Below are positions 11,951 to 61,632 of a stretch of 64,000 nt of DNA, piece by piece. Source of the stretch: Eledone cirrhosa. Its lineage: Eukaryota. The notes below the pieces were generated by a model that worked only from the letters and a program-made list of their open reading frames with translations, had not been told where the DNA came from and made no database searches. Position 1 is the stretch's first letter, and every line of letters starts with the position of its first letter. Where the stretch lies: positions 21,638,001-21,702,000 of the forward strand of contig OZ024748.1 of the NCBI GenBank assembly GCA_964016885.1, written 5' to 3'. The translations under genes and the position numbers were made by a program.

Positions 11951-12655
11951 AGGGACAACAAAATATCGTTATAGGTAATCCAGTTAGAGGTTGTGAATAC
12001 TTCTTATTATCGATAGTTTTAGCGTACGGCGTTGCTTGACTCAACAAGAGGTTTACGTAGATGGCGAGTTTATGATTTAACTTGTGTTCCTATGTAAGTT
12101 TATCTTGGAGTAATAACATTGAAAAAGTGAAGAATAACATGGTCAACAGTACAAAAAAGACTATATACATGTTTTTATATCTATATTATATCTGTATTTT
12201 TGACCATTGGTCAGTCAATGGTAAACATTGAGGACCGAATGAATTAACTGATATAAAAGATACAGAAGCGAAAACCAACCAAACACTGAGTGTGTTCTGT
12301 TATTAATTCTAGCAATATTATGACAACAATATGACCCTCCCCAAGTATATATATATATATATATTAGTGTATATGTGTGTGTCTGTGTGTATTGCATATC
12401 AGTATAAATACGCACACACACACACACATATATATACACACACACACACACTAGTACATACATATAGAAACTAAGTACGTTTCGTCGTTTGTGTTTACAC
12501 TCCGGTTTTTAGTTGTCTGTTTTCAAAGTCTACTTTCACTTTTTTTTTTCTTTTTGTATACAAAAATAGAAAACAAAACGAGAGGAATACATTTAACGAA
12601 GCACATAGATAGATTACAGTCATATATATAGAGAGATGTACGCAGTGTATTATAT

Positions 12656-12723
<68 letters not shown>

Positions 12724-12764
12724 CGAAACATAAGTCAATTGCATGAACTCATAATCCTTTATTT

Positions 12765-12820
12765 ACTGCTATATATATTTCGATGATAGCCATTGAATGG
12801 CTATGACCTCATCAGGCAGT
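12765..12820 (-). ncRNA. Type I hammerhead ribozyme motif, canonical core (family 4)
   Basis: Minus strand: ACTGC-CTGATGA-GGTCATAGCCAT tca ATGGCTATCATC-GAAA-TATATA-TA^GCAGT; G10.1-C11.1 pair, palindromic helix III. Confidence 0.85.
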
Positions 12821-12922
12821 TAGTCAGTTCTTAGATATGCCAGCTCTGTGTTTAATGTGTTGATGGTATCAGAGCCTTGGGACATATATATATACACACA
12901 CACACACACATATATATATATA

Positions 12923-12963
<41 letters not shown>

Positions 12964-12977
12964 AAATATATATATAT

Positions 12978-13052
12978 TGGGTCGTCAAGTATGAAATTTG
13001 TAGAAATATGTAGGGAAAACAAATTTCTACAAATTTCATTCTTGACGACCCA
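12978..13052. repeat. Short hairpin insert between (TA)n tracts
   Basis: tgggtcgtcaag-t-atgaaatttgtagaaat / atttctacaaatttcat-t-cttgacgaccca. Confidence 0.8.
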
Positions 13053-13059
13053 GTATATG

Positions 13060-13104
<45 letters not shown>

Positions 13105-13383
13105 TCTTTTACTCTTTTACCTGTTGCAACCATCCGGATGAGGCCATGCTGGGGCACATAATATATGTATCTATATATATATATATATATAGATAATTTA
13201 ATATATCAGCTAACATAGGCGCACAGATGCACGTCCATGCCAGCAAATACACAGGTTATGTCATAATACCTAGGTGGTTCAATGCAGGAGGGTGCAGAAC
13301 AATAATATAAAAGACGTAAGATAAGAAAATATTTTTTTAAAAAAATTTAAAAAAATTTTTTTTACTTACTTACTTAAATTTTC

Positions 13384-13465
13384 ACTCCAACTAATTAGTT
13401 TCTGCAATGGGATAAAGACAGTTACGTAATCCAACTGTCGAGAATTCATTGCGTCATCAGGGAGT
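13384..13465 (-). ncRNA. Type I hammerhead ribozyme (family 5, inverted copy)
   Basis: Reverse complement of 14378-14459. Confidence 0.85.
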
Positions 13466-13819
13466 CTATTCTCAGCTGAGTCTCCAGGCAATGCGCGGAC
13501 ACTGGCGGCTCATATAAAAATAATAATAATTCGGTAGAAAGAACAGCTTGCGAGGACTGGATTCTAGCAAACCTGCCAAAACCACTTCTAAATTTTTTTT
13601 GGGGTGTTAGTAGGCGTCAGTCATCTTACCATCCCATTCCTTCTAACTAGCCTCTGTGTCACGTGATTGATTCTTTAGAATCGGCCATTTGACTAGAAGC
13701 AGTGAGAATTTCAGTACATAGAATCCAGTCCTCGCAAGCTGTTCTTTCTACCGAATTATTATTATTTTTATATGAGCCGCCAGTGTCCGCGCATTGCCTG
13801 GAGACTCAGCTGAGAATAG

Positions 13820-13901
13820 ACTCCCTGATGACGCAATGAATTCTCGACAGTTGGATTATGTAACTGTCTTTATCCCATTGCAGAAACTAATTAGTTGGAG
13901 T
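13820..13901 (+). ncRNA. Type I hammerhead ribozyme (family 5, unit 1)
   Basis: ACTCC-CTGATGA-C-GCAATG aattctc GACAGTT ggattatgt AACTGTC tttatcc CATTGC-A-GAAAC-TAATTA-GTT^GGAGT; predicted cleavage after 13896. Confidence 0.85.
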
Positions 13902-14377
13902 GAAAATTTAAGTAAGTAAGTAAAAAAAATTTTTTTTAATTTTTTTAAAAAAATATTTTCTTATCTTACGTCTTTTATATTATTGTTCTGCACCCTCCTG
14001 CATTGAACCACCTAGGTATTATGACATAACCTGTGTATTTGCTGGCATGGACGTGCATCTGTGCGCCTATGTTAGCTGATATATTAAATTATCTATATTT
14101 ATCTCCAAATCACTGATTTGTCGAGCAAACCTGCCAAAACCACTTCTAAATTTTTTTTGGGGTGTTAGTAGGCGTCAGTCATCTTACCATCCCATTCCTT
14201 CTAACTAGCCTCTGTGTCACGTGATTGATTCTTTAGAATCGGCCATTTGACTAGAAGCAGTGAGAATTTCAGTACATAGAATCCAGTCCTCGCAAGCTGT
14301 TCTTTCTACCGAATTATTATTATTTTTATATGAGCCGCCAGTGTCCGCGCATTGCCTGGAGACTCAGCTGAGAATAG

Positions 14378-14459
14378 ACTCCCTGATGACGCAATGAATT
14401 CTCGACAGTTGGATTACGTAACTGTCTTTATCCCATTGCAGAAACTAATTAGTTGGAGT
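14378..14459 (+). ncRNA. Type I hammerhead ribozyme (family 5, unit 2)
   Basis: Same motif 558 bp downstream; predicted cleavage after 14454. Confidence 0.85.
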
Positions 14460-14528
14460 GAAAATTTAAGTAAGTAAGTAAAAAAAAATTTTTTAAATTT
14501 TTTTAAAAAAATATTTTCTTATCTTACG

Positions 14529-14583
<55 letters not shown>

Positions 14584-14733
14584 GGTTTGTTGGTTCATCA
14601 CTGGATAGAATTGGTCATTCCGTATGGTCAATCTTGATGTAATATTATGGAGAGTACTCAACGTAGTGCAGTTCACCCGTCTTCGTTTGTGTAGTTGGTG
14701 GTGCTAATACGGAGTTAATTATTATGAATAAAA

Positions 14734-14917
14734 GGTCGGTGGATTGGCAGTATCGGTAGAGGGTCGGACTCCATGCTTTCCAGCATAGTTACGTCCCTTT
14801 GCGGTCTGAGTTCAAATCCCGCCGAGGTTAACTTTGCCTTTCATCCTTACGGGGTCGAGAAAATAAAGTACCTGTAATGTACTGGTTAATTGCTGGCCTT
14901 GTGCCAAAAGTAGAAAC
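14734..14917 (+). mobile_element. tRNA-derived SINE (Deu/Nin-like domain) with TSD
   Basis: A-box-like tggcagtatcgg, B-box gagttcaaatccc, gcctttcatccttacggggtcga; TSD aattattat(g/a)aataaaa. Confidence 0.85.
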
Positions 14918-14921
14918 AATT

Positions 14922-15168
14922 ATTATAAATAAAATAACAGGAGGCTGGACTGGTGTAAATCCTTGAAAAGTTTATTATACTATGATCATTTCAATGACCG
15001 GGTTCCGTATGAATCCGGTGATATCATCAGGTATTCGAAATATAACAAAGGAATATCACCGGATGATATCATCGGATTTATACGGAACCCGGTCATTGAA
15101 ATGATCATAGTATAATAAACTTTTCAAGGATTTACACCAGTCCAGCCTCCTGTTATTTTATTTATAAT
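14922..15168. mobile_element. Inverted-arm Penelope-like insert (about 110-bp arms)
   Basis: 14922-15032 versus 15058-15168 reverse complement; ends in (TA)n. Confidence 0.75.
14977..15034 (-). ncRNA. Type I hammerhead ribozyme motif (family 6)
   Basis: Minus strand: ATAC-CTGATGA-T-ATCACCGG attcatacggaac CCGGTCAT-T-GAAA-TGATCA-TA^GTAT; the + strand mirror copy has a mutated core (CGGATGA). Confidence 0.8.
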
Positions 15169-15175
15169 TATATAA

Positions 15176-15214
<39 letters not shown>

Positions 15215-15260
15215 TGGCTTCTACAGGACTAGAACTGTTTCATTCGCGAGAAATCATCAG

Positions 15261-15311
15261 GGCTTCCTGATGATTTCTCCCGAATGAAACAGTTCTAGTC
15301 CTGTAGAAGCC
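15261..15311 (+). ncRNA. Type I hammerhead ribozyme motif (family 7) inside a ~105-bp palindrome (about 15210-15317)
   Basis: GGCTTC-CTGATGA-T-TTC tccc GAA-T-GAAACAG ttctagtc CTGTA^GAAGCC; 6-bp helix I, 4-bp helix III. Confidence 0.8.
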
Positions 15312-15393
15312 ATTTCTATATTAAATATTTATACTCTGCTTTGTATTGAGTACCTTATTTACTGTGGTTACCTCCGATTGAACCCGAGATAAA

Positions 15394-15440
<47 letters not shown>

Positions 15441-15444
<4 letters not shown>

Positions 15445-15591
15445 GTTTCTACTTTAGGCACAAGGCCAGCAATTACTCAGTGCATTACTGGTACTTTATT
15501 TTATCGACCCCGTAAGGATGAAAGGCAAAGTCAACCTCGGCGGGATTTGAACTCAGATCGTAAAGGGACGTAACTATGCTGGAAAGCATGG
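15441..15591 (-). mobile_element. tRNA-derived SINE (Deu/Nin-like), 5'-truncated, within (TA)n
   Basis: Reverse complement of the 29436 family. Confidence 0.85.
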
Positions 15592-15821
15592 ATATATATA
15601 TATATATATATTGTCTGTGTGTGTGTATATATTGGATATATTACACTGCGTGCATGCCCCCCCCCCTCTCCGCCTTCTCCCAAATATTATTCACTTATAG
15701 GTTTTTTAGGTTTTAGTTTTATAAGATCCTGTTGCATTGTAAAGCTGACAAGTTCATAGGTTTCTACGACCACATTCGATTTTTTTTCCTAAGACGTATT
15801 TAATCCTACATCTATACTGTG

Positions 15822-16078: not shown

Positions 16079-18777
<2,699 letters not shown>

Positions 18778-18852
18778 GAAGGAAATGTGGTAAGGAACCA
18801 GGTGGACCATAACGCACCAAAGTACTCAATACTTAGGGTAGTAGAGTGGGTA

Positions 18853-19068
<216 letters not shown>

Positions 19069-19685: not shown

Positions 19686-20005
19686 TCTTTCAATGTGGCC
19701 AGGTGAAAACGAGGCTTTGACCCCAATGACACTGTTTGTAAAATGGAGTTGACGGTATTCGGTAAGAATTTCTTTTCACAGCCAAGTACTCCTGTGTTTG
19801 TTTTTAGTTACACGTCTGTTAGCAAAACATAAACATTCGTTTCAACATCAAATACAGTAATGTTAGTTTTACATATATTTCTTTAAATATTATGATTTTT
19901 AAATGCATTGTTGGTCGACTGAGTTCTGTTTGTGAGTTTAAATATTTATTGATGAAGATAACAACAGAATGTCTAGTAATTATAGACTGAAGTGTTCTCG
20001 TCAGA

Positions 20006-21028
20006 ATGTCAGCTAAAGTTTCTGCGAGTAATAAAAACCACAATAGCTGTATGGATGATAACCAACATAAAATTCAAAAATACAATATTGATTCTAACCA
20101 TCCTGTCGACACAATCAACAAACCTAACAAGAAAACAACAACTTCAAACGGTAAAAAGATACACCGCAAAACATCTTTTAAATATGTAAAAGAATTTGTG
20201 AGTCGTATTATGATGCGGCAAATTCAACTGTCGTCAACAACACCATTACAACCTTATGATAGAGATGAGATTGATTATAGTTGCGACACAAATCACAACC
20301 AGGAACACAAAAGATACTTTTCAAACTTAAATAGTAATAACGAGGAAGATAGTGCGATTCTTTCAGTTGCTGCTCTGACACAAGAAGAGATAAATACTTC
20401 TAGTATGCCAGCTTCTAAGTCTAACTATAGTAGTTCAACTGTTTCTAACAATGACCTATTATGTAATAATCCTACTACAATTATACCTATTACCGTAGCA
20501 GGAGATAGCAATAAGTATAATAATGAAAGCAGTTACTGTGAATCAACAATCCGCCCATTGGTTACTCACAGTGTAAATACCGATTTAAATATTCGCTATA
20601 TTAGACAGAATAGTAAACCTAAGATGCCTGTTTGGGATGATATAACACCTGGAACTGAAGGACTCAATAACCACGGCAACACCTGTTTTATGAATGCAGT
20701 ACTACAATGCATTAGCAATGCAAGTTTTCTTTCTGGCTATTTTGTTATGGGACATTACAAAGAAGAATTAAAAAACAACAAAAATAGTTGTAAAAAGTTC
20801 GGATCCAGCGGGGAAGTGACTGAACAATTAGGTATTTTATTACGAAGTATCTGGTCAGGTAAATACAACCCTGATGTTTCTTATGAATTTAAAACTGTTG
20901 TAGGGAAATATAATTCTCAATTCAAAGGATTTAATCAGCATGATGCACAAGAGTTTTTACTTTGGTTGTTGGATCAAGTACACGAAGATCTAAATTTACC
21001 TATTAAAAGGACTAAAACAAATCAACAG
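20006..21028 (+). CDS. USP31: Ubiquitin carboxyl-terminal hydrolase USP31/USP43-like, coding exon 1
   Basis: ATG at 20006; Cys box GLNNHGNTCFMNAVLQC; GEVTEQL; QHDAQEFLLWLLD; donor CAG|GTTAGT, phase 0 (341 codons). Confidence 0.9.
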
Positions 21029-21379
21029 GTTAGTAATATTTTTTTATTTATTTGCCTTTTTTAGTTTTATTAAATTTAACTGAGGTAATTACTGCCATTC
21101 TTATTTATATTATGTGTTTTTGATGTATTTTTGGTGAGTGCGTGTTTTATTTGTGTGGAGGTTCGGATGATAATGAACGGAAGTGACAGGTACTTAAAAG
21201 AAATCCACGATGATGGCTAAGACTTATTATCTTCCGGTATATATATTAATATTTACGTCTCTTTAAAATTAACATGTTTAATACATCGAAATAGAGAAAT
21301 ATTATAGCTAATTATTATATATTGCCAGTTAATAAATGATTTATATATATATAATATGGTGACTAATAAAGTAATTTAT

Positions 21380-24411: not shown

Positions 24412-24920
24412 CACATACACGTACACCAGGTTCAAACACAGAGGAGCCAAACTCCCACTGTCATCGCCTCCATCTCCCTCCTCATCACATACACGTACAC
24501 CAGGTTCAAACACAGAGGAGCCAAACTCCCACTGTCATCGCCTCCATCTCCCTCCTCATCACATACACGTACACCAGGTTCAAACACAGAGGAGCCAAAT
24601 TCCCACTGTCATCGCCTCCATCTCCCTCCTCATCACATACACGTACACCAGGTTCAAACACAGAGGAGCCAAACTCCCACTGTCATCGCCTCCATCTCCC
24701 TCCTCATCACATACACGTACACCAGGTTCAAACACAGAGGAGCCAAACTCCCACTGTCATCGCCTCCATCTCCCTCCTCATCACATACACGTACACCAGG
24801 TTCAAACACAGAGGAGCCAAACTCCCACTGTCATCGCCTCCATCTCCCTCCTCATCACATACACGTACACCAGGTTCAAACACAGAGGAGCCAAACTCCC
24901 ACTGTCATCGCCTCCATCTC
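24412..24920. repeat. 74-bp tandem repeat, about 6.9 near-identical copies
   Basis: gtacaccagg recurs at 24421, 24495 and onward. Confidence 0.95.
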
Positions 24921-28850: not shown

Positions 28851-29083
28851 TATTTATATATATATACATATATGTACATGTATTACTTTGTTATTTTTCT
28901 AAATTTCCTCAAAATTTGAGGTTATTTTCAAAATTATTTTTAAATATGTTTGTTTTGTTTGTGGTAATTCAAAGGTTAATCATTAATGTATAAAAAAAAT
29001 TAAAATTAAAATAATTTGCTTCTTTTTTTTTTCAGACATATATATGTATAATATTACAAATTGTAATTATTCTTTTATTTCAG

Positions 29084-29413
29084 AAATTTTCCTCTGAGAA
29101 AAAATCAATCCCCACTGAATTATCGGTGACTAACCAAACAATAATCTATAAATTGTTCCGAGGGTTGTACCAATCATCTTTAACGTGTTTAAGATGTAGA
29201 AGACAAAGCAACACATATGATCCATATTTGTGTCTCTCTCTACCCTTACCTCAGATTCGTAACAGAGCAATATATATTACCATTGTATATTTAGATCCTA
29301 ATGTGACTTTTAAAAGAATCGGAATTCTAATGAAAAATACTGAAAGTTTGGGGGATTTAAGGCAATATTTGTCCGAGTTACCATCACATTATCCAGCCAT
29401 TCCCAGAACAAAA
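29084..29413 (+). CDS. USP31: USP31/USP43-like coding exon 2
   Basis: tttcag acceptor; KFSSEK..LFRGLYQSSLTCLRCRRQSNTYDPYLCLSLPLPQ..; GTAAGT donor; 330 nt, phase 0-0. Confidence 0.9.
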
Positions 29414-29435
29414 GTAAGTATTATTTCATTTTAAC

Positions 29436-34847: not shown

Positions 34848-37800
34848 GTCACAGATATAGATATATACACACATACACACACACTATCACAGATATATAT
34901 AGATATATACACATATATACACACACACTATCACAGATATATATAGATATATACACATATATACACACACACTATCACAGATATATATAGATATATACAC
35001 ACACACTATCACAGATATATATAGATATATACACATATATACACACACACTATCACAGATATATATATATACACATATATACACACACGCTATCACAGAT
35101 ATAGATATATACACAACACATACACACACACACTATCACAGATATATATATACACATATACACACACACTATCACAGATATATATAGATATATACACACA
35201 TACACACACACACTATCACAGATATATATAGATATATACACACACACTATTACAGATATATATAGATATATACACATACACTATTACAGATATATACACA
35301 CACTATCACAGTTACATACACACTATCACAGTTACATACACACACTATCACAGTTACATACACACTATCACAGTTACATACACACAGTATCACAGTTACA
35401 TACACACTATCACAGTTACATACACACTATCACAGTTACATACACACTATCACAGTTATATACACACGCTATCACAGTTACATACAAACAGTATCACATT
35501 TACATACACACACTATCACAGTTACATACACACACTATCACAGTTACATACACACTATCACAGTTACATACACACTATGACAGTTACATACACACTATCA
35601 CAGTTACATACACACTATCACAGTTACATACACACACTATCACAGTTACATATACACTATCACAGTTACATACACACACTATCACAGTTACATACACACA
35701 CTATCACAGTTATATACACACACTATCACAGTTACATACACACACTATCAGAGTTACATACACACACTATCACAGTTATATACACACTATCACAGTTACA
35801 TACACACACTATCACAGTTATATACACACAGTATCACAGTTACATACACACACTATCACAGTTACATACACACACTATCACAGTTATATACACACAGTAT
35901 CACAGTTACATACACACTATCACAGTTACATACACACTATCACAGTTACATACACACACTATCACAGTTACATACACACTATCACAGTTACATACACACA
36001 CTATCACAGTTACATACACACTATCACAGTTACATACACACTATCACAGTTACATACACACACTATCACAGTTACATACACACAGTATCACAGTTACATA
36101 CACACTATCACAGTTACATACACACACTATCACAGTTACATACACACAGTATCACAGTTACATACACACTATCACAGTTACATACACACTATCACAGTTA
36201 CATACACACACTATCACAGTTACATACACACAGTATCACAGTTACATACACACTATCACAGTTACATACACACTATCACAGTTACATACACACACTATCA
36301 CAGTTACATACACACTATCACAGTTACATACACACACTATCACAGTTACATACACACTATCACAGTTACATACACACACTATCACAGTTACATACACACA
36401 GTATCACAGTTACATACACACTATCACAGTTACATACACACACTATCACAGTTACATACACACACTATCACAGTTACATACACACTATCACAGTTACATA
36501 CACACACTATCACAGTTACATACACACTATCACAGTTACATACACACACTATCACAGTTACATACACACAGTATCACAGTTACATACACACTATCACAGT
36601 TACATACACACTATCACAGTTACATACACACACTATCACAGTTACATACACACTATCACAGTTACATACACACTATCACAGTTACATACACACACTATCA
36701 CAGTTACATACACACTATCACAGTTACATACACACACTATCACAGTTACATACACACTATCACAGTTACATACACACACTATCACAGTTACATACACACT
36801 ATCACAGTTACATACACACACTATCACAGTTATATACACACAGTATCACAGTTACATACACACTATCACAGTTACATACACACTATCACAGTTACATACA
36901 CACTATCACAGTTATATACACATGCTATCACAGTTACATACAAACAGTATCACATTTACATACACACACTATCACAGTTACATACACACTATCACAGTTA
37001 CATACACACTATCACAGTTACATACACACTATCACAGTTACATACACACTATCACAGTTACATACACACACTATCACAGTTACATACACACTATCACAGT
37101 TATATACACACACTATCACAGTTACATACAAACAGTATCACATTTACATACTCACACTATCACAGTTACATACACACTATCACAGTTACATACACACTAT
37201 CACAGTTACATACACACTATCACAGTTACATACACACTATCACAGTTACATATACACTATCACAGTTACATACACACACTATCACAGTTACATACACACA
37301 CTATCACAGTTATATACACACACTATCACAGTTACATACACACACTATCAGAGTTACATACACACACTATCACAGTTATATACACACTATCACAGTTACA
37401 TACACACACTATCACAGTTATATACACACAGTATCACAGTTACATACACACACTATCACAGTTACATACACACACTATCACAGTTATATACACACAGTAT
37501 CACAGTTACATACACACTATCACAGTTACATACACACACTATCACAGTTACATACACACACTATCACAGTTACATACACACTATCACAGTTACATACACA
37601 CACTATCACAGTTATATACACACAGTATCACAGTTATATACACACACTATCACAGTTACATACACACTATCACAGTTACATACACACACTATCACAGTTA
37701 CATACACACTATCACAGTTACATACACACTATCACAGTTACATACACACTATCACAGTTACATACACACACTATCACAGTTACATACACACTATCACAGT

Positions 37801-40800
37801 TTCATACACACTATCACAGTTACATACACACACTATCACAGTTACACACACACTATCAGAGTTACATACACACACTATCACAGTTACATACACACACTAT
37901 CACAGTTACATACACACACTATCACAGTTACATACACACACTATCACAGTTACATACACACACTATCACAGTTACATACACACACTATCACAGTTACATA
38001 CACACACTATCACAGTTACATACACACACTATCACAGTTACATACACACTATCACAGTTACATACACACTATCACAGTTACATACACACACTATCACAGT
38101 TACATACACACACTATCACAGTTACATACACACAGTATCACAGTTACATACACACTATCACAGTTACATACACACACTATCACAGTTACATACACACTAT
38201 CACAGTTACATACACACACTATCACAGTTACATACACACTATCACAGTTACATACACACACTATCACAGTTACATACACACACTATCACAGTTATATACA
38301 CACACTATCACAGTTACATACACACACTATCACAGTTATATACACACACTATCACAGTTACATATACACACTATCACAGTTACATACACACACTATCACA
38401 GTTATATACACACACTATCACAGTTACATACACACACTATCACGGTTATATACACACTATCACAGTTACATACACACACTATGACAGTTATATACACACA
38501 GTATCACAGTTACATACACACACTATCACAGTTACATACACACTATCACAGTTACATACACACTATCACAGTTACATACACACACTATCACAGTTACATA
38601 CACACTATCACAGTTACATACACACTATCACAGTTACATACACACACTATCACAGTTACATACACACTATCACAGTTACATACACACACTATCACAGTTA
38701 CATACACACTATCACAGTTACATACACACTATCACAGTTACATACACACACTATCACAGTTACATACACACACTATCACAGTTACATACACACTATCACA
38801 GTTACATACACACTATCACAGTTACATACACACTATCACAGTTACATACACACTATCACAGTTACATACACACACTATCACAGTTACATACACACTATCA
38901 CAGTTACATACACACTATCACAGTTACATACACACACTATCACAGTTACATACACACTATCACAGTTACATACACACTATCACAGTTACATACACACACT
39001 ATCACAGTTACATACACACACTATCACAGTTACATACACACACTATCACAGTTACATACACACTATCACAGTTACATACACACTATCACAGTTACATACA
39101 CACACTATCACAGTTACATACACACTATCACAGTTACATACACACACTATCACAGTTACATACACACACTATCACAGTTACATACACACACTATCACAGT
39201 TACATACACACTATCACAGTTACATACACACTATCACAGTTACATACACACACTATCACAGTTACATACACACACTATCACAGTTACATACACACTATCA
39301 CAGTTACATACACACACTATCACAGTTACATACACACACTATCACAGTTACATACACACACTATCACAGTTACATACACACTATCACAGTTACATACACA
39401 CACTATCACAGTTACATACACACACTATCACAGTTACATACACACTATCACAGTTACATACACACTATCACAGTTACATACACACTATCACAGTTACATA
39501 CACACACTATCACAGTTACATACACACAGTATCACAGTTACATACACACTATCACAGTTACATACACACTATCACAGTTACATACACACACTATCACAGT
39601 TACATACACACTATCACAGTTACATACACACACTATCACAGTTACATACACACTATCACAGTTACATACACACACTATCACAGTTACATACACACAGTAT
39701 CACAGTTACATACACACTATCACAGTTACATACACACACTATCACAGTTACATACACACACTATCACAGTTACATACACACTATCACAGTTACATACACA
39801 CACTATCACAGTTACATACACACTATCACAGTTACATACACACAGTATCACAGTTACATACACACTATCACAGTTACATACACACTATCACAGTTACATA
39901 CACACACTATCACAGTTACATACACACTATCACAGTTACATACACACACTATCACAGTTACATACACACTATCACAGTTACATACACACACTATCACAGT
40001 TACATACACACTATCACAGTTACATACACACACTATCACAGTTATATACACACAGTATCACAGTTACATACACACTATCACAGTTACATACACACTATCA
40101 CAGTTACATACACACTATCACAGTTATATACACACGCTATCACAGTTACATACAAACAGTATCACATTTACATACACACACTATCACAGTTACATACACA
40201 CTATCACAGTTACATACACACTATCACAGTTACATACACACTATCACAGTTACATACACACTATCACAGTTACATACACACACTATCACAGTTACATACA
40301 CACTATCACAGTTATATACACACACTATCACAGTTACATACAAACAGTATCACATTTACATACTCACACTATCACAGTTACATACACACTATCACAGTTA
40401 CATACACACTATCACAGTTACATACACACTATCACAGTTACATACACACTATCACAGTTACATACACACTATCACAGTTACATACACACACTATCACAGT
40501 TACATACACACACTATCACAGTTATATACACACACTATCACAGTTACATACACACACTATCAGAGTTACATACACACACTATCACAGTTATATACACACT
40601 ATCACAGTTACATACACACACTATCACAGTTATATACACACAGTATCACAGTTACATACACACACTATCACAGTTACATACACACACTATCACAGTTATA
40701 TACACACAGTATCACAGTTACATACACACTATCACAGTTACATACACACACTATCACAGTTACATACACACACTATCACAGTTACATACACACTATCACA

Positions 40801-43800
40801 GTTACATACACACACTATCACAGTTATATACACACAGTATCACAGTTATATACACACACTATCACAGTTACATACACACTATCACAGTTACATACACACA
40901 CTATCACAGTTACATACACACTATCACAGTTACATACACACTATCACAGTTACATACACACTATCACAGTTACATACACACACTATCACAGTTACATACA
41001 CACTATCACAGTTTCATACACACTATCACAGTTACATACACACACTATCACAGTTACACACACACTATCAGAGTTACATACACACACTATCACAGTTACA
41101 TACACACACTATCACAGTTACATACACACACTATCACAGTTACATACACACACTATCACAGTTACATACACACACTATCACAGTTACATACACACACTAT
41201 CACAGTTACATACACACAGTATCACAGTTACATACACACACTATCACAGTTACATACACACTATCACAGTTACATACACACTATCACAGTTACATACACA
41301 CACTATCACAGTTACATACACACACTATCACAGTTACATACACACACTATCACAGTTACATACACACAGTATCACAGTTACATACACACTATCACAGTTA
41401 CATACACACACTATCACAGTTACATACACACTATCACAGTTACATACACACACTATCACAGTTACATACACACTATCACAGTTACATACACACACTATCA
41501 CAGTTACATACACACACTATCACAGTTATATACACACACTATCACAGTTACATACACACACTATCACAGTTATATACACACACTATCACAGTTACATACA
41601 CACACTATCACAGTTACATACACACACTATCACAGTTATATACACACACTATCACAGTTACATACAGACACTATCACGGTTATATACACACTATCACAGT
41701 TACATACACACACTATGACAGTTATATACACACAGTATCACAGTTACATACACACACTATCACAGTTACATACACACTATCACAGTTACATACACACTAT
41801 CACAGTTACATACACACACTATCACAGTTACATACACACTATCACAGTTACATACACACTATCACAGTTACATACACACACTATCACAGTTACATACACA
41901 CTATCACAGTTACATACACACACTATCACAGTTACATACACACTATCACAGTTACATACACACTATCACAGTTACATACACACACTATCACAGTTACATA
42001 CACACACTATCACAGTTACATACACACTATCACAGTTACATACACACTATCACAGTTACATACACACTATCACAGTTACATACACACTATCACAGTTACA
42101 TACACACACTATCACAGTTACATACACACTATCACAGTTACATACACACTATCACAGTTACATACACACACTATCACAGTTACATACACACTATCACAGT
42201 TACATACACACTATCACAGTTACATACACACACTATCACAGTTACATACACACACTATCACAGTTACATACACACTATCACAGTTACATACACACTATCA
42301 CAGTTACATACACACACTATCACAGTTACATACACACTATCACAGTTACATACACACACTATCACAGTTACATATACACACTATCACAGTTACATACACA
42401 CACTATCACAGTTACATACACACTATCACAGTTACATACACACTATCACAGTTACATACACACACTATCACAGTTACATACACACACTATCACAGTTACA
42501 TACACACTATCACAGTTACATACACACACTATCACAGTTACATACACACACTATCACAGTTACATACACACACTATCACAGTTACATACACACTATCACA
42601 GTTACATACACACACTATCACAGTTACATACACACACTATCACAGTTACATACACACTATCACAGTTACATACACACTATCACAGTTACATACACACTAT
42701 CACAGTTACATACACACACTATCACAGTTACATACACACACTATCACAGTTACATACACACTATCACAGTTACATACACACTATCACAGTTACATACACA
42801 CTATGACAGTTACATATACACTATCACAGTTACATACACACACTATCACAGTTACATACACACTATCACAGTTACATACACACACTATCACAGTTACATA
42901 CACACACTATCACAGTTACATACACACTATCACAGTTACATACACACACTATCACAGTTCCATACACACACTATCACAGTTACATACACACTATCACAGT
43001 TACATACACACACTATCACAGTTACATACACACACTATCACAGTTACATACACACACTATCACAGTTACATACACACTATCACAGTTACATACACACACT
43101 ATCACAGTTACATACACACACTATCACAGTTACATACACACTATCACAGTTACATACACACACTATCACAGTTACATACACACACTATCACAGTTACATA
43201 CACACACTATCACAGTTACATACACACACTATCACAGTTACATACACACACTATCACAGTTACATACACACACTATCACAGTTACATACACACTATCACA
43301 GTTACATACAAACACTATCACAGTTACATACAAACACTATCACAGTTACATACACACTATCACAGTTACATACACACACTATCACAGTTACATACACACA
43401 CTATCACAGTTACATACACACACTATCACAGTTACATACACACAGTATCACAGTTACATACACACTATCACAGTTACATACACACTATCACAGTTACATA
43501 CACACACTATCACAGTTACATACACACTATCACAGTTACATACACACACTATCACAGTTACATACACACAGTATCACAGTTACATACACACTATCACAGT
43601 TACATACACACACTATCACAGTTACATACACACACTATCACAGTTACATACACACTATCACAGTTACATACACACACTATCACAGTTACATACACACTAT
43701 CACAGTTACATACACACACTATCACAGTTACATACACACAGTATCACAGTTACATACACACTATCACAGTTACATACACACTATCACAGTTACATACACA

Positions 43801-46800
43801 CACTATCACAGTTACATACACACTATCACAGTTACATACACACTATCACAGTTACATACACACTATCACAGTTACATACACACACTATCACAGTTACATA
43901 CACACTATCACAGTTACATACACACACTATCACAGTTACATACACACACTATCACAGTTACATACACACACTATCACAGTTACATACACACTATCACAGT
44001 TACATACACACACTATCACAGTTACATACACACTATCACAGTTACATACACACACTATCACAGTTATATACACACAGTATCACAGTTACATACACACTAT
44101 CACAGTTACATACACACTATCACAGTTACATACACACTATCACAGTTATATACACACACTATCACAGTTACATACAAACAGTATCACATTTACATACACA
44201 CACTATCACAGTTACATACACACACTATCACAGTTACATACACACTATCACAGTTACATACACACTATCACAGTTACATACACACTATCACAGTTACATA
44301 CACACTATCACAGTTACATACACACTATCACAGTTACATACACACACTATCACAGTTACATACACACTATCACAGTTATATACACACACTATCACAGTTA
44401 CATACAAACAGTATCACATTTACATACACACACTATCACAGTTACATACACACTATCACAGTTACATACACACTATCACAGTTACATACACACTATCACA
44501 GTTACATACACACTATCACAGTTACATACACACTATCACAGTTACATACACACTATCACAGTTACATATACACTATCAGAGTTACATACACACACTATCA
44601 CAGTTACATACACACACTATCACAGTTATATACACACACTATCACAGTTACATACACACAGTATCACAGTTACATACACACACTATCACAGTTACATACA
44701 CACACTATCACAGTTACATACACACACTATCACAGTTACATACACACTATCACAGTTACATACACACACTATCACAGTTACATACACACTATCACAGTTA
44801 CATACACACACTATCACAGTTACATACACACACTATCACAGTTATATACACACACTATCACAGTTACATACACACACTATCACAGTTATATACACACACT
44901 ATCACAGTTACATACACACACTATCACAGTTACATACACACACTATCACAGTTATATACACACACTATCACAGTTACATACACACACTATCACGGTTATA
45001 TACACACTATCACAGTGACATACACGCACTATCACAGTTATATACACACAGTATCACAGTTACATACACACACTATCACAGTTACATACACACACTATCA
45101 CAGTTATATACACACTATCACAGTTACATACACACACTATCACAGTTATATACACACAGTATCACAGTTACATACACACACTATCACAGTTACATACACA
45201 CACTATCACAGTTATATACACACAGTATCACAGTTACATACACACTATCACAGTTACATACACACACTATCACAGTTACATACACACACTATCACAGTTA
45301 CATACACACTATCACAGTTACATACACACACTATCACAGTTATATACACACAGTATCACAGTTATATACACACACTATCACAGTTACATACACACTATCA
45401 CAGTTACATACACACACTATCACAGTTACATACACACTATCACAGTTACATACACACTATCACAGTTACATACACACACTATCACAGTTACATACACACA
45501 CTATCACAGTTACATACACACACTATCACAGTTACATACACACACTATCACAGTTACATACACACAGTATCACAGTTACATACACACTATCACAGTTACA
45601 TACACACACTATCACAGTTACATACACACTATCACAGTTACATACACACACTATCACAGTTACATACACACACTATCACAGTTACATACACACACTATCA
45701 CAGTTATATACACACACTATCACAGTTACATACACACACTATCACAGTTATATACACACACTATCACAGTTACATACACACACTATCACAGTTACATACA
45801 CACTATCACAGTTACATACACACTATGACAGTTACATATACACTATCACAGTTACATACACACTATCACAGTTACATACACACACTATCACAGTTACATA
45901 CACACACTATCACAGTTACATACACACTATCACAGTTACATACACACTATCACAGTTACATACACACACTATCACAGTTACATACACACACTATCACAGT
46001 TACATACACACACTATCACAGTTACATACACACACTATCACAGTTACATACACACAGTATCACAGTTACATACACACTATCACAGTTACATACACACACT
46101 ATCACAGTTACATACACACTATCACAGTTACATACACACACTATCACAGTTACATACACACTATCACAGTTACATACACACACTATCACAGTTACATACA
46201 CACTATCACAGTTACATACACACACTATCACAGTTATATACACACAGTATCACAGTTACATACACACTATCACAGTTACATACACACTATCACAGTTACA
46301 TACACACTATCACAGTTATATACACACACTATCACAGTTACATACAAACAGTATCACATTTACATACACACACTATCACAGTTACATACACACACTATCA
46401 CAGTTACATACACACTATCACAGTTACATACACACTATCACAGTTACATACACACTATCACAGTTACATACACACTATCACAGTTACATACACACACTAT
46501 CACAGTTACATACACACTATCACAGTTATATACACACACTATCACAGTTACATACAAACAGTATCACATTTACATACACACACTATCACAGTTACATACA
46601 CACTATCACAGTTACATACACACTATCACAGTTACATACACACTATCACAGTTACATACACACTATCACAGTTACATACACACTATCACAGTTACATACA
46701 CACTATCACAGTTACATATACACTATCAGAGTTACATACACACACTATCACAGTTACATACACACACTATCACAGTTATATACACACACTATCACAGTTA

Positions 46801-49800
46801 CATACACACAGTATCACAGTTACATACACACACTATCACAGTTACATACACACACTATCACAGTTACATACACACACTATCACAGTTACATACACACTAT
46901 CACAGTTACATACACACACTATCACAGTTACATACACACTATCACAGTTACATACACACACTATCACAGTTACATACACACACTATCACAGTTATATACA
47001 CACACTATCACAGTTACATACACACACTATCACAGTTATATACACACACTATCACAGTTACATACACACACTATCACAGTTACATACACACACTATCACA
47101 GTTATATACACACACTATCACAGTTACATACACACACTATCACGGTTATATACACACTATCACAGTGACATACACGCACTATCACAGTTATATACACACA
47201 GTATCACAGTTACATACACACACTATCACAGTTACATACACACACTATCACAGTTATATACACACTATCACAGTTACATACACACACTATCACAGTTATA
47301 TACACACAGTATCACAGTTACATACACACACTATCACAGTTACATACACACACTATCACAGTTATATACACACAGTATCACAGTTACATACACACTATCA
47401 CAGTTACATACACACACTATCACAGTTACATACACACACTATCACAGTTACATACACACTATCACAGTTACATACACACACTATCACAGTTATATACACA
47501 CAGTATCACAGTTATATACACACACTATCACAGTTACATACACACTATCACAGTTACATACACACACTATCACAGTTACATACACACTATCACAGTTACA
47601 TACACACTATCACAGTTACATACACACACTATCACAGTTACATACACACACTATCACAGTTACATACACACACTATCACAGTTACATACACACACTATCA
47701 CAGTTACATACACACAGTATCACAGTTACATACACACTATCACAGTTACATACACACACTATCACAGTTACATACACACTATCACAGTTACATACACACA
47801 CTATCACAGTTACATACACACACTATCACAGTTACATACACACACTATCACAGTTATATACACACACTATCACAGTTACATACACACACTATCACAGTTA
47901 TATACACACACTATCACAGTTACATACACACACTATCACAGTTACATACACACTATCACAGTTACATACACACTATGACAGTTACATATACACTATCACA
48001 GTTACATACACACTATCACAGTTACATACACACACTATCACAGTTACATACACACACTATCACAGTTACATACACACTATCACAGTTACATACACACTAT
48101 CACAGTTACATACACACACTATCACAGTTACATACACACACTATCACAGTTACATACACACACTATCACAGTTACATACACACACTATCACAGTTACATA
48201 CACACAGTATCACAGTTACATACACACTATCACAGTTACATACACACACTATCACAGTTACATACACACTATCACAGTTACATACACACACTATCACAGT
48301 TACATACACACTATCACAGTTACATACACACACTATCACAGTTACATACACACTATCACAGTTACATACACACACTATCACAGTTACATACACACACTAT
48401 CACAGTTACATACACACTATCACAGTTACATACACACTATCACAGTTACATACACACTATCACAGTTACATACACACACTATCACAGTTACATACACACA
48501 CTATCACAGTTACATACACACACTATCACAGTTACATACACACACTATCACAGTTACATACACACTATCACAGTTACATACACACTATCACAGTTACATA
48601 CACACACTATCACAGTTACATACACACAGTATCACAGTTACATACACACACTATCACAGTTACATACACACACTATCACAGTTACATACACACTATCACA
48701 GTTACATACACACACTATCACAGTTACATACACACTATCACAGTTACATACACACACTATCACAGTTACATACACACTATCACAGTTACATACACACACT
48801 ATCACAGTTACATACACACACTATCACAGTTACATACACACACTATCACAGTTACATACACACTATCACAGTTACATACACACACTATCACAGTTACATA
48901 CACACTATCACAGTTACATACACACACTATCACAGTTATATACACACAGTATCACAGTTACATACACACTATCACAGTTACATACACACTATCACAGTTA
49001 CATACACACTATCACAGTTATATACACACACTATCACAGTTACATACAAACAGTATCACATTTACATACACACACTATCACAGTTACATACACACACTAT
49101 CACAGTTACATACACACTATCACAGTTACATACACACTATCACAGTTACATACACACTATCACAGTTACATACACACTATCACAGTTACATACACACTAT
49201 CACAGTTACATACACACACTATCACAGTTACATACACACTATCACAGTTATATACACACACTATCACAGTTACATACAAACAGTATCACATTTACATACA
49301 CACACTATCACAGTTACATACACACTATCACAGTTACATACACACTATCACAGTTACATACACACTATCACAGTTACATACACACTATCACAGTTACATA
49401 CACACTATCACAGTTACATACACACTATCACAGTTACATATACACTATCAGAGTTACATACACACACTATCACAGTTACATACACACACTATCACAGTTA
49501 TATACACACACTATCACAGTTACATACACACAGTATCACAGTTACATACACACACTATCACAATTACACACACACTATCACAGTTACATACACACACTAT
49601 CACAGTTACATACACACTATCACAGTTACATACACACACTATCACAGTTACATACACACACTATCACAGTTATATACACACACTATCACAGTTACATACA
49701 CACACTATCACAGTTATATACACACACTATCACAGTTACATACACACACTATCACAGTTACATACACACACTGTCACAGTTATATACACACACTATCACA

Positions 49801-51982
49801 GTTATATACACACTATCACAGTGACATACACACACTATCACAGTTATATACACACAGTATCACAGTTACATACACACACTATCACAGTTACATACACACA
49901 CTATCACAGTTATATACACACTATCACAGTTACATACACACACTATCACAGTTATATACACACAGTATCACAGTTACATACACACACTATCACAGTTACA
50001 TACACACTCTATCACAGTTATATACACACAGTATCACAGTTACATACACACTATCACAGTTACATACACACACTATCACAGTTACATACACACACTATCA
50101 CAGTTACATACACACTATCACAGTTACATACACACACTATCACAGTTATATACACACAGTATCACAGTTATATACACACACTATCACAGTTACATACACA
50201 CTATCACAGTTACATACACACACTATCACAGTTACATACACACTATCACAGTTACATACACACTATCACAGTTACATACACACTATCACAGTTACATACA
50301 CACACTATCACAGTTACATACACACACTATCACAGTTACATACACACACTATCACAGTTACATACACACACTATCACAGTTACATACACACTATCACAGT
50401 TACATACACACTATCACAGTTACATACACACACTATCACAGTTATATACACACAGTATCACAGTTACATACACACTATCACAGTTACATACACACACTAT
50501 CACAGTTACATACACACACTATCACAGTTACATACACACACTATCACAGTTACATACACACTATCACAGTTATATACACACACTATCACAGTTACATACA
50601 AACAGTATCACATTTACATACACACACTATCACAGTTACATACACACTATCACAGTCACATACACACTATCACAGTTACATACACACTATCACAGTTGCA
50701 TACACACTATCACAGTTACATACACACTATCACAGTTACATATACACTATCAGAGTTACATACACACACTATCACAGTTACATACACACACTATCACAGT
50801 TATATACACACACTATCACAGTTACATACACACACTATCACAGTTACATACACACACTATCACAGTTACATACACACTATCACAGTTACATACACACACT
50901 ATCACAGTTACATACACACTATCACAGTTACATACACACACTATCACAGTTACATACACACACTATCACAGTTATATACACACACTATCACAGTTACATA
51001 CACACACTATCACAGTTATATACACACACTATCACAGTTACATACACACACTATCACAGTTACATACACACACTATCACAGTTATATACACACACTATCA
51101 CAGTTACATACACACACTATCACAGTTATATACACACTATCACAGTTACATACACACACTATCACAGTTATATACACACAGTATCACAGTTATATACACA
51201 CAGTATCACAGTTACATACACACACTATCACAGTTACATACACACACTATCACAGTTATATACACACAGTATCACAGTTACATACACACTATCACAGTTA
51301 CATACACGCTATCACAGTTACATACACACACTATCACAGTTACATACACACACTATCACAGTTACATACACACACTATCACAGTTACATACACACTATCA
51401 CGGTTACATACACACTATCACAGTTACATACACACTATCACAGTTACATACACACACTATCACAGTTACATACGCACACTATCACAGTTACATACACACA
51501 CTATCACAGTTACATACACACACTATCACAGTTACATACACACACTATCACAGTTACATATACACACTATCACAGTTACATACACACTATCACAGTTACA
51601 TACACACTATCACAGTTATATACACGCACTATCACAGTTACATACACACACTATCACAGTTACATACACACTATCACAGTTACATACACACACTATCACA
51701 GTTACATACACACACTAATCACAGTTACATACACACACTATCACAGTTACATACACACTATCACAGTTACATACACACTATCACAGTTACATACACACAC
51801 TATCACAGTTACATACACACTATCACAGTTACATACACACTATCACAGTTACATACACACACTATCACAGTTACATACACACTATCACAGTTACATACAC
51901 ACACTATCACAGTTACATACACACACTATCACAGTTACATACACACACACTGCTCAGTTACATACACACACACTGCTCAGTT
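34848..51982. repeat. ~17 kb intronic satellite of 20/22-bp units CTATCACAGTTACATACACA(CA)
   Basis: Direct reading; roughly 790 units by length/21; AT-richer proto-units at 34848-35300. Confidence 0.98.
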
Positions 51983-59840: not shown

Positions 59841-61632
59841 TTACATGGGTTGAACAAATCTTCTCTAACACCACTTTCTACTACATGGGTTGAACAAGTC
59901 TTCTCTAGCACCACTTTCTACTACATGTGTTGAACAAGTCTTCTCTAACACCACTTTCTACTACATGTGTTGAACAAGTCTTCTCTAGCACCACTTTCTA
60001 CTACATGGGTTGAACAAGTCTTCTCTAACACCACTTTCTACTACATGGGTTGAACAAGTCTTCTCTAGCACCACTTTCTACTACATGTGTTGAACAAGTC
60101 TTCTCTAGCACCACTTTCTACTACATGGGTTGAACAAGTCTTCTCTAGCACCACTTTCTACTACATGTGTTGAACAAGTCTTCTCTAGCACCACTTTCTA
60201 CTACATGTGTTGAACAAGTCTTCTCTAGCACCACTTTCTACTACATGTGTTGAACAAGTCTTCTCTAACACCACTTTCTACTACATGGGTTGAACAAGTC
60301 TTCTCTAGCACCACTTTCTACTACATGTGTTGAACAAATCTCTAACACCACTTTCTGCTACATGGGTTGAACAAGTCTTCTCTAACACCACTTTCTACTA
60401 CATGTGTTGAACAAATCTCTAACACCACTTTCTGCTACATGGGTTGAACAAGTCTTCTCTAGCACCACTTTCTACTACATGTGTTGAACAAATCTCTAAC
60501 ACCACTTTCTGCTACATGGGTTGAACAAGTCTTCTCTAACACCACTTTCTACTACATGTGTTGAACAAGTCTTCTCTAACACCACTTTCTACTACATGGG
60601 TTGAACAAATCTTCTCTAACACCACTTTCTACTACATGTGTTGAACAGGTCTTCTCTAACACCACTTTCTGCTACATGGGTTGAACAGGTCTTCTCTAAC
60701 ACCACTTTCTGCTACATGGGTTGAACAGGTCTTCTCTAACACCACTTTCTACTACATGTGTTGAACAGGTCTTCTCTAGCACCACTTTCTGCTACATGGG
60801 TTGAACAGGTCTTCTCTAACACCACTTTCTACTACATGGGTTGAACAGGTCTTCTCTAACACCACTTTCTACTACATGTGTTGAACAGGTCTACTCTAAC
60901 ACCACTTTCTGCTACATGGATTGAACAGGTCTTCTCTAACACCACTTTCTACTACATGGGTTGAACAGGTCTACTCTAACACCACTTTCTGCTACATGGG
61001 TTGAACAGGTCTTCTCTAACACCACTTTCTGCTACATGGGTTGAACAGGTCTTCTCTAACACCACTTTCTACTACATGTGTTGAACAGGTCTACTCTAAC
61101 ACCACTTTCTACTACATGGGTTGAACAAGTCTTCTCTAGCACCACTTTCTACTACATGGGTTGAACAGGTCTTCTCTAACACCACTTTCTGCTACATGGG
61201 TTGAACAGGTCTTCTCTAGCACCATTTTCTACTACATGGGTTGAACAAGTCTTCTCTAACACCACTTTCTGCTACATGGGTTGAACAGGTCTTCTCTAAC
61301 ACCACTTTCTGCTACATGGGTTGAACAGGTCTTCTCTAACACCACTTTCTGCTACATGGGTTGAACAGGTCTTCTCTAACACCACTTTCTGCTACATGGG
61401 TTGAACAGGTCTTCTCTAACACCACTTTCTGCTACATGGGTTGAACAGGTATTCTCTAACACCACTTTCTGCTACATGGGTTGAACAGGCCTTCTCTAAC
61501 ACCACTTTCTGCTACATGGGTTGAACAGGTCTTCTCTAACACCACTTTCTGCTACATGGGTTGAACAGGTCTTCTCTAACACCACTTTCTGCTACATGGG
61601 TTGAACAGGTCTTCTCTAACACCATTTTCTGC
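59841..61632. repeat. 40-bp minisatellite, about 45 copies
   Basis: ctacatgggttgaacaagtcttctctaacaccactttcta units, a few 37-bp variants. Confidence 0.96.

Follow-up and report, generated by a model that had tools for sequence, protein, structure and literature searches.

A non-coding hammerhead repeat that lies in the genome as a tandem joined to an inverted copy of itself raises the question of which enzyme inserted it and from what kind of RNA it was copied. Such an element is found in a 64,000-nucleotide stretch of Eledone cirrhosa DNA (contig OZ024748.1, positions 21,638,001 to 21,702,000; hereafter the window). A sequence-only reading had described about 1.7 head-to-tail units of 558 bp, an inverted copy of about 380 bp, near-identical copies with one hammerhead each, predicted cuts after 13896 and 14454, no open reading frame (ORF) and (TA)n at both ends, and every part of this description held up in the analysis reported here. 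Published work is cited throughout from the available portions of each source.

The element in the window

With the unit numbered U1-558 from 13563, the inverted arm (13183-13566, minus strand) comprises U157-540, is 384 nt long, faces outward and is 99% complementary to 13719-14102. The direct arm (13566-14538, plus strand; 973 nt, or 1.74 units at a spacing of 558) is made up of a first unit (13566-14120, positions 4-558 of the 558-nt unit 13563-14120) and a second, partial one (14121-14538, positions 1-418). Both arms are 5'-truncated and meet at 13563-13566 with an exact overlap of 1 nt, or of 4 nt with one mismatch. Their 3' ends are named site A in the direct arm and site B in the inverted arm. 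TA runs span 13161-13206 and 14534-14580 on either side: the left microsatellite target (13161-13190) merges with the end of the inverted arm, the right one (14534-14580) is a (TA)23, and because the flanks are (TA)n a target-site duplication is unreadable.

The C/T difference quoted in the sequence-only reading (T at 13859, C at 14417) is the sole substitution among the three copies, the junction and A/T-run shift aside. Over 418 nt the tandem copies show four differences, namely the inversion junction, this substitution and two register shifts in A/T runs. Since only a single substitution separates the three copies, the insertion is very young. The unit has a GC content of 37% and no match to proteins of Penelope-like elements (PLEs), and the longest ATG frame in its circularised form is 27 codons.

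Three type I hammerhead motifs are present, with cores at 13825 (+), 14383 (+) and 13460 (-). The first (13820-13901, plus strand) has its predicted cut after 13896 (U334) and the second (14378-14459, plus strand) after 14454; these cuts lie exactly 558 nt apart and bound a predicted 558-nt monomer (13897-14454, plus strand). The copy within the inverted arm (13384-13465, minus strand) would be cut between 13389 and 13388. The parts of the first hammerhead are helix I (13820-24/13897-901), the core (13825-31), an extra C (13832), helix II (13833-38/13876-81) with an internal loop and a distal stem, an extra A (13882) and the palindromic helix III (13885-96). Each copy has a 5-bp helix I, a 6-bp helix II opening with G-C, a helix III formed by a 12-nt palindrome, and the cleavage triplet GUU, with one extra A preceding G12. 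The traits given for PLE hammerheads in the available text of PMC4209133 are a base between 9 and 10.1, G10.1-C11.1, a long helix II, a helix I of 4-5 bp and a palindromic helix III. All of these are found in the window motif, and the unpaired A before G12 is additional to them. Rfam gave no hammerhead match over the whole window at gathering score, nor at E<=5 over 12500-15600, where its matches were hairpin and microsatellite noise.

The predicted structure was evaluated in 30 distinct copies, picked from 66 distinct sequences to span subfamilies of the genome-wide family described below. For the whole hammerhead 95.3% of cells were paired, as against 37-49% in slid controls, and 46 double-change cells were counted versus 17.0 in shuffled sets, with 0 of 500 shuffles reaching that number, although related sequences can exceed such shuffles without structure. 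Helix II had 97.8% of cells paired and double changes in two of its six pairs; the motif by which the copies were collected includes helix III and the 3' side of helix I, which for that reason do not vary. In a subfamily of up to 652 matches helix I is lengthened to 6 bp by one more G following the cut. By eye, a GUA triplet occurs in both arms of seven insertions and a GUC triplet in both arms of one, and none of the 98 matches with a variant at the essential U16.1 has it on both arms. The GUA variant is probably a single lineage, and its evidence is suggestive only because the examined GUA copies (L205, L206) share one subfamily.

Folded locally (13795-13915) the region is no better than its shuffles (z -0.95), and the hammerhead is not the minimum but costs 2.5 kcal/mol. 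Folded as a circle, the 558-nt monomer reaches -133.4 kcal/mol with the hammerhead formed, compared with -108.2 +/- 5.5 for 40 shuffles (z -4.6), none of which was as low. A dimer, which the palindrome had been taken to imply, is plausible in that the 12-nt palindrome forms a duplex with itself at -10.8 kcal/mol, but folding does not require it because a 3-bp helix III forms in the monomer.

Other hammerhead-like repeats lie close by. An unrelated two-armed hammerhead mini-element at 15213-15395 (cores 15267 + and 15260 -) has some 80 nt of extra tail on its right arm before (TA)n, giving it a one-end-tail look, and relatives of it are found in L099, L102, L106 and L115. At 14919-15171 and 12720-12880 are an inverted pair with a third hammerhead-like motif (core 15030 -) and a fourth motif (core 12815 -), both with a palindromic helix III. 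A repeat bearing A- and B-box-like motifs is present in two inverted copies, at 14700-14923 and 15439-15592, each ending in TA, and we take this repeat to be tRNA-SINE-like. By their motifs, the long minus-strand frame at 16383-18911 is presumably of an RTE-type LINE, and the plus-strand exons at 19991-21064 and 29015-29434, about 5.5 kb downstream of the element, presumably belong to a ubiquitin-specific protease. The window further holds a strongly strand-skewed satellite of 17 kb (34874-51971) with a repeat unit of 22 nt, and tandems of 74 nt (x7, at 24412) and 40 nt (x45, at 59842).

A dispersed family with two fixed ends

The monomer is not single-copy. The core 22-mer of the ribozyme occurs 9,169 times in the 3.0-Gb genome and its reversed control 0 times, and 199 matches to the unit were obtained, lying in 37 scored places out of 1,566 candidates. 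Subfamilies are 67-99% alike, identity to the window unit being 67-97% among the first-listed loci of contig 1, and the unit measures 513-573 nt and closes on itself in all of them. The family is thus a large, ORF-free, dispersed multi-copy repeat. Given these core counts, and since the same architecture recurs in 56 other insertions, the window element is neither a product of chance nor an oddity of the assembly.

Insertions were compared at 99 loci, comprising the window, 35 top-scoring loci, 59 first-listed pattern loci and four variant loci; L044 (a duplicate of L043), overlapping windows and the double insertion L139 were dropped, and the sample is by its design enriched for long arms. 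A PLE-protein match was present at 12 of these loci, always at least 738 nt from the insertion, and no ORF for reverse transcriptase (RT) and GIY-YIG was found inside or within 738 nt of any of the 99. The family is therefore not the pLTR of an adjoining PLE ORF, the ordinary situation that the sequence-only reading had set against a retrozyme.

The most informative feature of these insertions is their pair of fixed ends, one site for the tandem and another for the inverted copy. Arms stop in (TA)n either at U418 (site A), 84 nt past the predicted cut, or at about U532-540 (site B), some 120 nt further on. Under calls that required a TA-like flank, both ends are visible at 57 of the 99 loci, as 30 A-B and 27 B-A pairs and not a single A-A or B-B. 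The other 42 show B alone (23), A alone (13) or neither (6), and some single arms fuse straight to (TA)n at their 5' end. The strict A+B rule implies that the two primings are coupled in one asymmetric complex. That the element is non-autonomous, multi-copy and recently active, with the insertion anatomy of a PLE, had been proposed from the window by the sequence-only reading, and all of these points held.

The segment of about 120 nt between the two sites, here called the tail, folds as two hairpins. In the window it is read through in the first unit (13981-14102, plus strand), from site A (13980) to site B (about 14094-14102), with hairpins at about 13985-14008 and 14034-14083. The long hairpin shows 97.4% pairing in 26 of 40 representative copies, largely via G-U changes; 13 of its 22 pairs vary on one side, mostly to G-U, and two on both sides. 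Two more tandem hammerhead families, with units of 459 nt and about 490 nt, were encountered at L098:6710-7619 and L107:8168-9653, and a hairpin of the 459-nt family closely resembles the first of the two tail hairpins described here.

The probable enzyme and its candidate templates

A PLE enzyme very probably mobilises the family, to judge from its sequence signature, since the A/B tail at one end is the published mark of two internal RT starts and is common to the ORF-bearing PLEs of this genome. PLE insertions are reported to comprise partial tandems, an inverted 5' copy and a tail of 30-40 bp that is often at one end only (PMC8557442). The PLE protein of Anolis, Poseidon PAc, nicks each of the two strands and extends it, and its two internal start sites delimit the tail (PMC11167929). 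In that source one start lies at +111-118 and the hammerhead cut at +26, a distance of 85-92 nt, which compares with the 84 nt from cut to site A in the window family.

Candidate enzymes are abundant. GIY-YIG candidates number 10,597 in the genome, and the examined loci encode an RT with a C-terminal GIY-YIG and a cysteine linker of the Neptune/Nematis kind described in PMC8557442. The frame of L099 is open over 1,025 codons and 29 further copies of its family differ on average at 1.4 positions in 286 nt at the 3' end, so that active-looking enzymes are present. Like the window family, the ORF-bearing RT/GIY-YIG families sit in (TA)n with a one-end tail, which measures 34 nt in the L099 family (in all three visible pairs among 30 loci, plus L099), 54 nt in L112 and 61 nt in L102. 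A short motif of the same spacing is common to the window family and the L099 family at site A. No pLTR homologous to the unit was found in 70 GIY-YIG loci (69 distinct places) of the 10,597 candidates, and the family copies near three GIY-YIG loci (L084, L105, L252) look like separate TA insertions.

Two apparent chimeras were considered as evidence for a partner and rejected, as L145 has an L099-type end and L050 an L097-type end, thus from different families, and a later insertion explains them equally well. In both (L145:1307-1430, L050:2834-3244) family arms are fused in the same orientation to PLE 3' ends, by template switch or later insertion. The L097, L103 and L114 PLE families display near their 3' ends only a hammerhead-like half resembling a GAAA palindrome, a full core not being found there by script, and in the L097 family a possible intron follows this half.

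As to the template, we lean slightly towards the view that a non-coding hammerhead retrozyme is copied in trans by a PLE RT-endonuclease from a predicted self-cleaved, likely circular 558-nt RNA. For the circularity of the template taken by itself our confidence is likewise just above even. A tandem copy would be transcribed, both predicted hammerheads would cut out the monomer, and this would be ligated. The PLE protein, probably as a dimer, would bind the two-hairpin tail and nick both (TA)n strands, whereupon one nicked strand would prime at A and the other at B, each aided by a TA-like stretch of the RNA. Each cDNA would then circle the template for anything between a fraction of a unit and about ten units, the cDNA ends would be joined via 0-7 nt of microhomology to give the inversion, and a few insertions would later be enlarged by duplication in place to satellite arrays tens of kb long. 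The complete version of this scheme, with the insertion as a fossil of rolling-circle twin priming in which an asymmetric PLE dimer holds one circular RNA, the nicked strands prime at both ends of the tail and both polymerases circle the template with strand displacement, is advanced tentatively and falls short of an even chance.

Junctions were mapped in 54 arm pairs, that is 108 arms, three of the 57 pairs having been dropped, and the overlap at the junction is 0-7 nt in 41 of the 54 insertions. Because 90 of the 108 arms read through the predicted cut, the template cannot have been just a cleaved linear monomer: without jumps such a monomer allows arms of 84 nt from site A and about 200 nt from site B, and most arms are longer. 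At least two crossings are made by 39 arms, and in 38 of the 54 insertions both arms cross. The circle is favoured by the circular fold, by the precedent of retrozymes (PMC7229834) and by arrays such as L063. The nine units of L063 are 0-2 substitutions apart and share three variants that are fixed in all of them and occur elsewhere in L066 only, one of them also in L060, a pattern predicted by a monomer bottleneck.

Other observations are neutral towards a circle or count against it, namely the GUU triplet, the extra A before G12 and an excess of stops near the cut. Of 80 long arms, 12 stop 0-29 nt 3' of the predicted cut (p 0.001 under a uniform model, 0.01-0.04 when microhomology-weighted and 0.03 for any window), and one arm, in L163, stops exactly at it. 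Such stops are equally compatible with the 5' ends of cleaved linear RNA and with a polymerase that stalls where the RNA would have been ligated. It has also been reported that PLE-type hammerheads cleave weakly (PMC4209133) and that eight of nine Xenopus retrozyme dimers did not cleave (bioRxiv 10.64898/2026.07.22.740005).

The same two-site priming by a PLE could have taken place on an uncleaved or partly cleaved linear multimer transcribed from a genomic array, with no circle involved and with length restored by local duplication. We regard this as unlikely, yet it is the alternative that survives best. Cleavage is dispensable in vitro for the Anolis PLE, where hammerhead mutants inserted unimpaired and uncleaved RNA was the main substrate (PMC11167929), and the surplus of arms whose 5' ends fall shortly 3' of the cut, that of L163 lying exactly there, agrees with a linear template. 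So does the higher-order structure of the giant and some of the mid-sized arrays. Four giant arrays (L187-L202, on contigs C2, C5, C12 and C28), their continuity inferred from pattern matches, show higher-order repeats; the shortest spans at least 67 kb and the longest at least 127 kb, and L052 and L058 show such structure at small scale. These longest arrays gained their size through duplication in place after insertion. As arrays also grow by local duplication, array length alone is no proof of rolling-circle copying. Against a linear multimer, a unit-specific variant pattern repeated between independent loci was not seen by eye in 36 young loci, 68 of the 80 long arms end elsewhere than near the cut, and no pile of 5' ends marks a transcription start. 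Moreover, the ribozyme has been kept with compensatory changes over about 30% divergence.

It is improbable, though conceivable for a telomerase-related RT, that a cleaved linear monomer was copied by repeated jumps from its 5' end to the 3' end of the same or another monomer. The arm stops just 3' of the cut would suit such jumps, as would arm-specific variants in L059 and L052; in L059 two variants are in both covering units of one arm and absent from the other arm. By eye, T>C at U16.1 is about twice as frequent as in its same-context control. The jumping would, however, have to be nearly error-free given 9,169 exact cores, and of the first 100 of 652 matches in a search for insertions, 97 belonged to a single inherited subfamily with a G insertion. 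A candidate RT scar at the ligation site found no support: variants numbered 98 at U16.1, 81 at H17 and 181 at G1.1, while three control Ts had 34, 55 and 89. The same-context control (89) is nearly as high as U16.1 (98), and there was no G control.

It is very improbable, and already largely refuted, that the family is no more than a satellite formed at the DNA level, an artefact of assembly or the pLTR of an autonomous PLE that has gone unrecognised. Such readings are favoured by the lack of a partner in the 70 GIY-YIG loci and by the satellite-like behaviour of arrays measuring from 67 kb to over 127 kb. Against them, every subfamily has a self-closing unit, which continues into an ORF at none of the 99 loci, the dispersed insertions have fixed ends with random 5' truncation, and three of the four giant arrays still terminate at site B in (TA)n, that of C2 having kept a short inverted arm together with its end at site B.

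Twin priming is familiar from L1, in which each of the two nicked target strands primes synthesis on the RNA and an inversion arises when microhomology unites the cDNAs. In L1 the position of the second site varies and the two parts cover separate stretches, whereas in the family described here neither site varies and the arms are copies of one and the same sequence.

Relation to known elements and significance

Judged on its sequence, the family would be a non-LTR retrozyme by the operational definition given in the available text of the 2026 preprint of Li et al. (bioRxiv 10.64898/2026.07.22.740005), and its insertions show the complete Penelope anatomy. Lacking an RT/GIY-YIG ORF between pLTRs, the family cannot be counted as an autonomous PLE. 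With the metazoan non-LTR retrozymes of Cervera and de la Pena 2020 (PMC7229834) and of Li et al. it shares ORF-free tandems with one type I hammerhead per unit and a GC content below 50%, thousands of copies, a range from dimers to very long arrays, co-occurring PLEs and a strongly folded predicted circle. Its unit of 513-573 nt is longer than the retrozyme RNAs of 170-400 nt in PMC7229834 and exceeds the published 150-450 bp, but lies inside the 51-972 bp of the preprint. The window hammerhead differs from those of metazoan retrozymes in being PLE-type with a long helix II, and the family is known here from DNA alone. Inverted arms, fixed 3' ends and a tail are undescribed for retrozymes in the available portions of these sources, the word 'inverted' being absent from that of PMC7229834 and 'tail' from the text of the preprint. 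Nor did the accessible literature yield a retrozyme with inverted arms, fixed A/B ends and a tail, or a count of A+B coupling; supplements, subscription papers and repeat databases may hold cases.

EN+ PLEs such as Poseidon PAc (PMC11167929) and Neptune/Naiad (PMC8557442) resemble the family in their partial tandems, inverted 5'-truncated copy, one-end tail, AT-rich or (TA)n targets and a hammerhead about 85 nt upstream of the RT start. Unlike them, the family has no ORF, both of its arms can be multimeric and no match to a pLTR sequence was found in the 70 GIY-YIG loci. Its tail of about 120 nt is also longer than the 30-40 nt published and the 34-61 nt of the ORF-bearing PLE families in this genome. 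A further likeness is to the non-autonomous Chlamys elements, e.g. MRC1 (PMC8557442), which are non-coding dependants of PLEs with pLTR-like and multicopy head-to-tail insertions. In the available account that clade is without canonical hammerheads and usually resembles the 3' end of its autonomous partner, whereas the window family has a conserved hammerhead and no partner match in those 70 loci.

The mobilisation of animal retrozymes by PLEs and the origin of PLE tandems from circular RNA are published hypotheses (PMC4209133, PMC7229834, bioRxiv 10.64898/2026.07.22.740005) that rest, in the portions available, on co-occurrence and pLTR similarity, and the formation of tandem and inverted PLE insertions has been stated to be an open question (PMC8557442). 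The two-site, one-end-tail footprint on an ORF-free retrozyme adds a different type of evidence, and the strict A+B coupling is unreported in the available text of the published in vitro work (PMC11167929). Furthermore, the element offers a 558-nt non-coding substrate with two mapped priming sites, by which a circular versus a linear template, and one versus two templates, become testable in the existing cell-free assay. If rolling-circle twin priming is true, the family would provide thousands of natural read-outs of how tandem and inverted PLE insertions arise and direct genomic evidence for PLEs moving retrozyme circles, and the route by which one insertion becomes a satellite exceeding 100 kb would have been traced.
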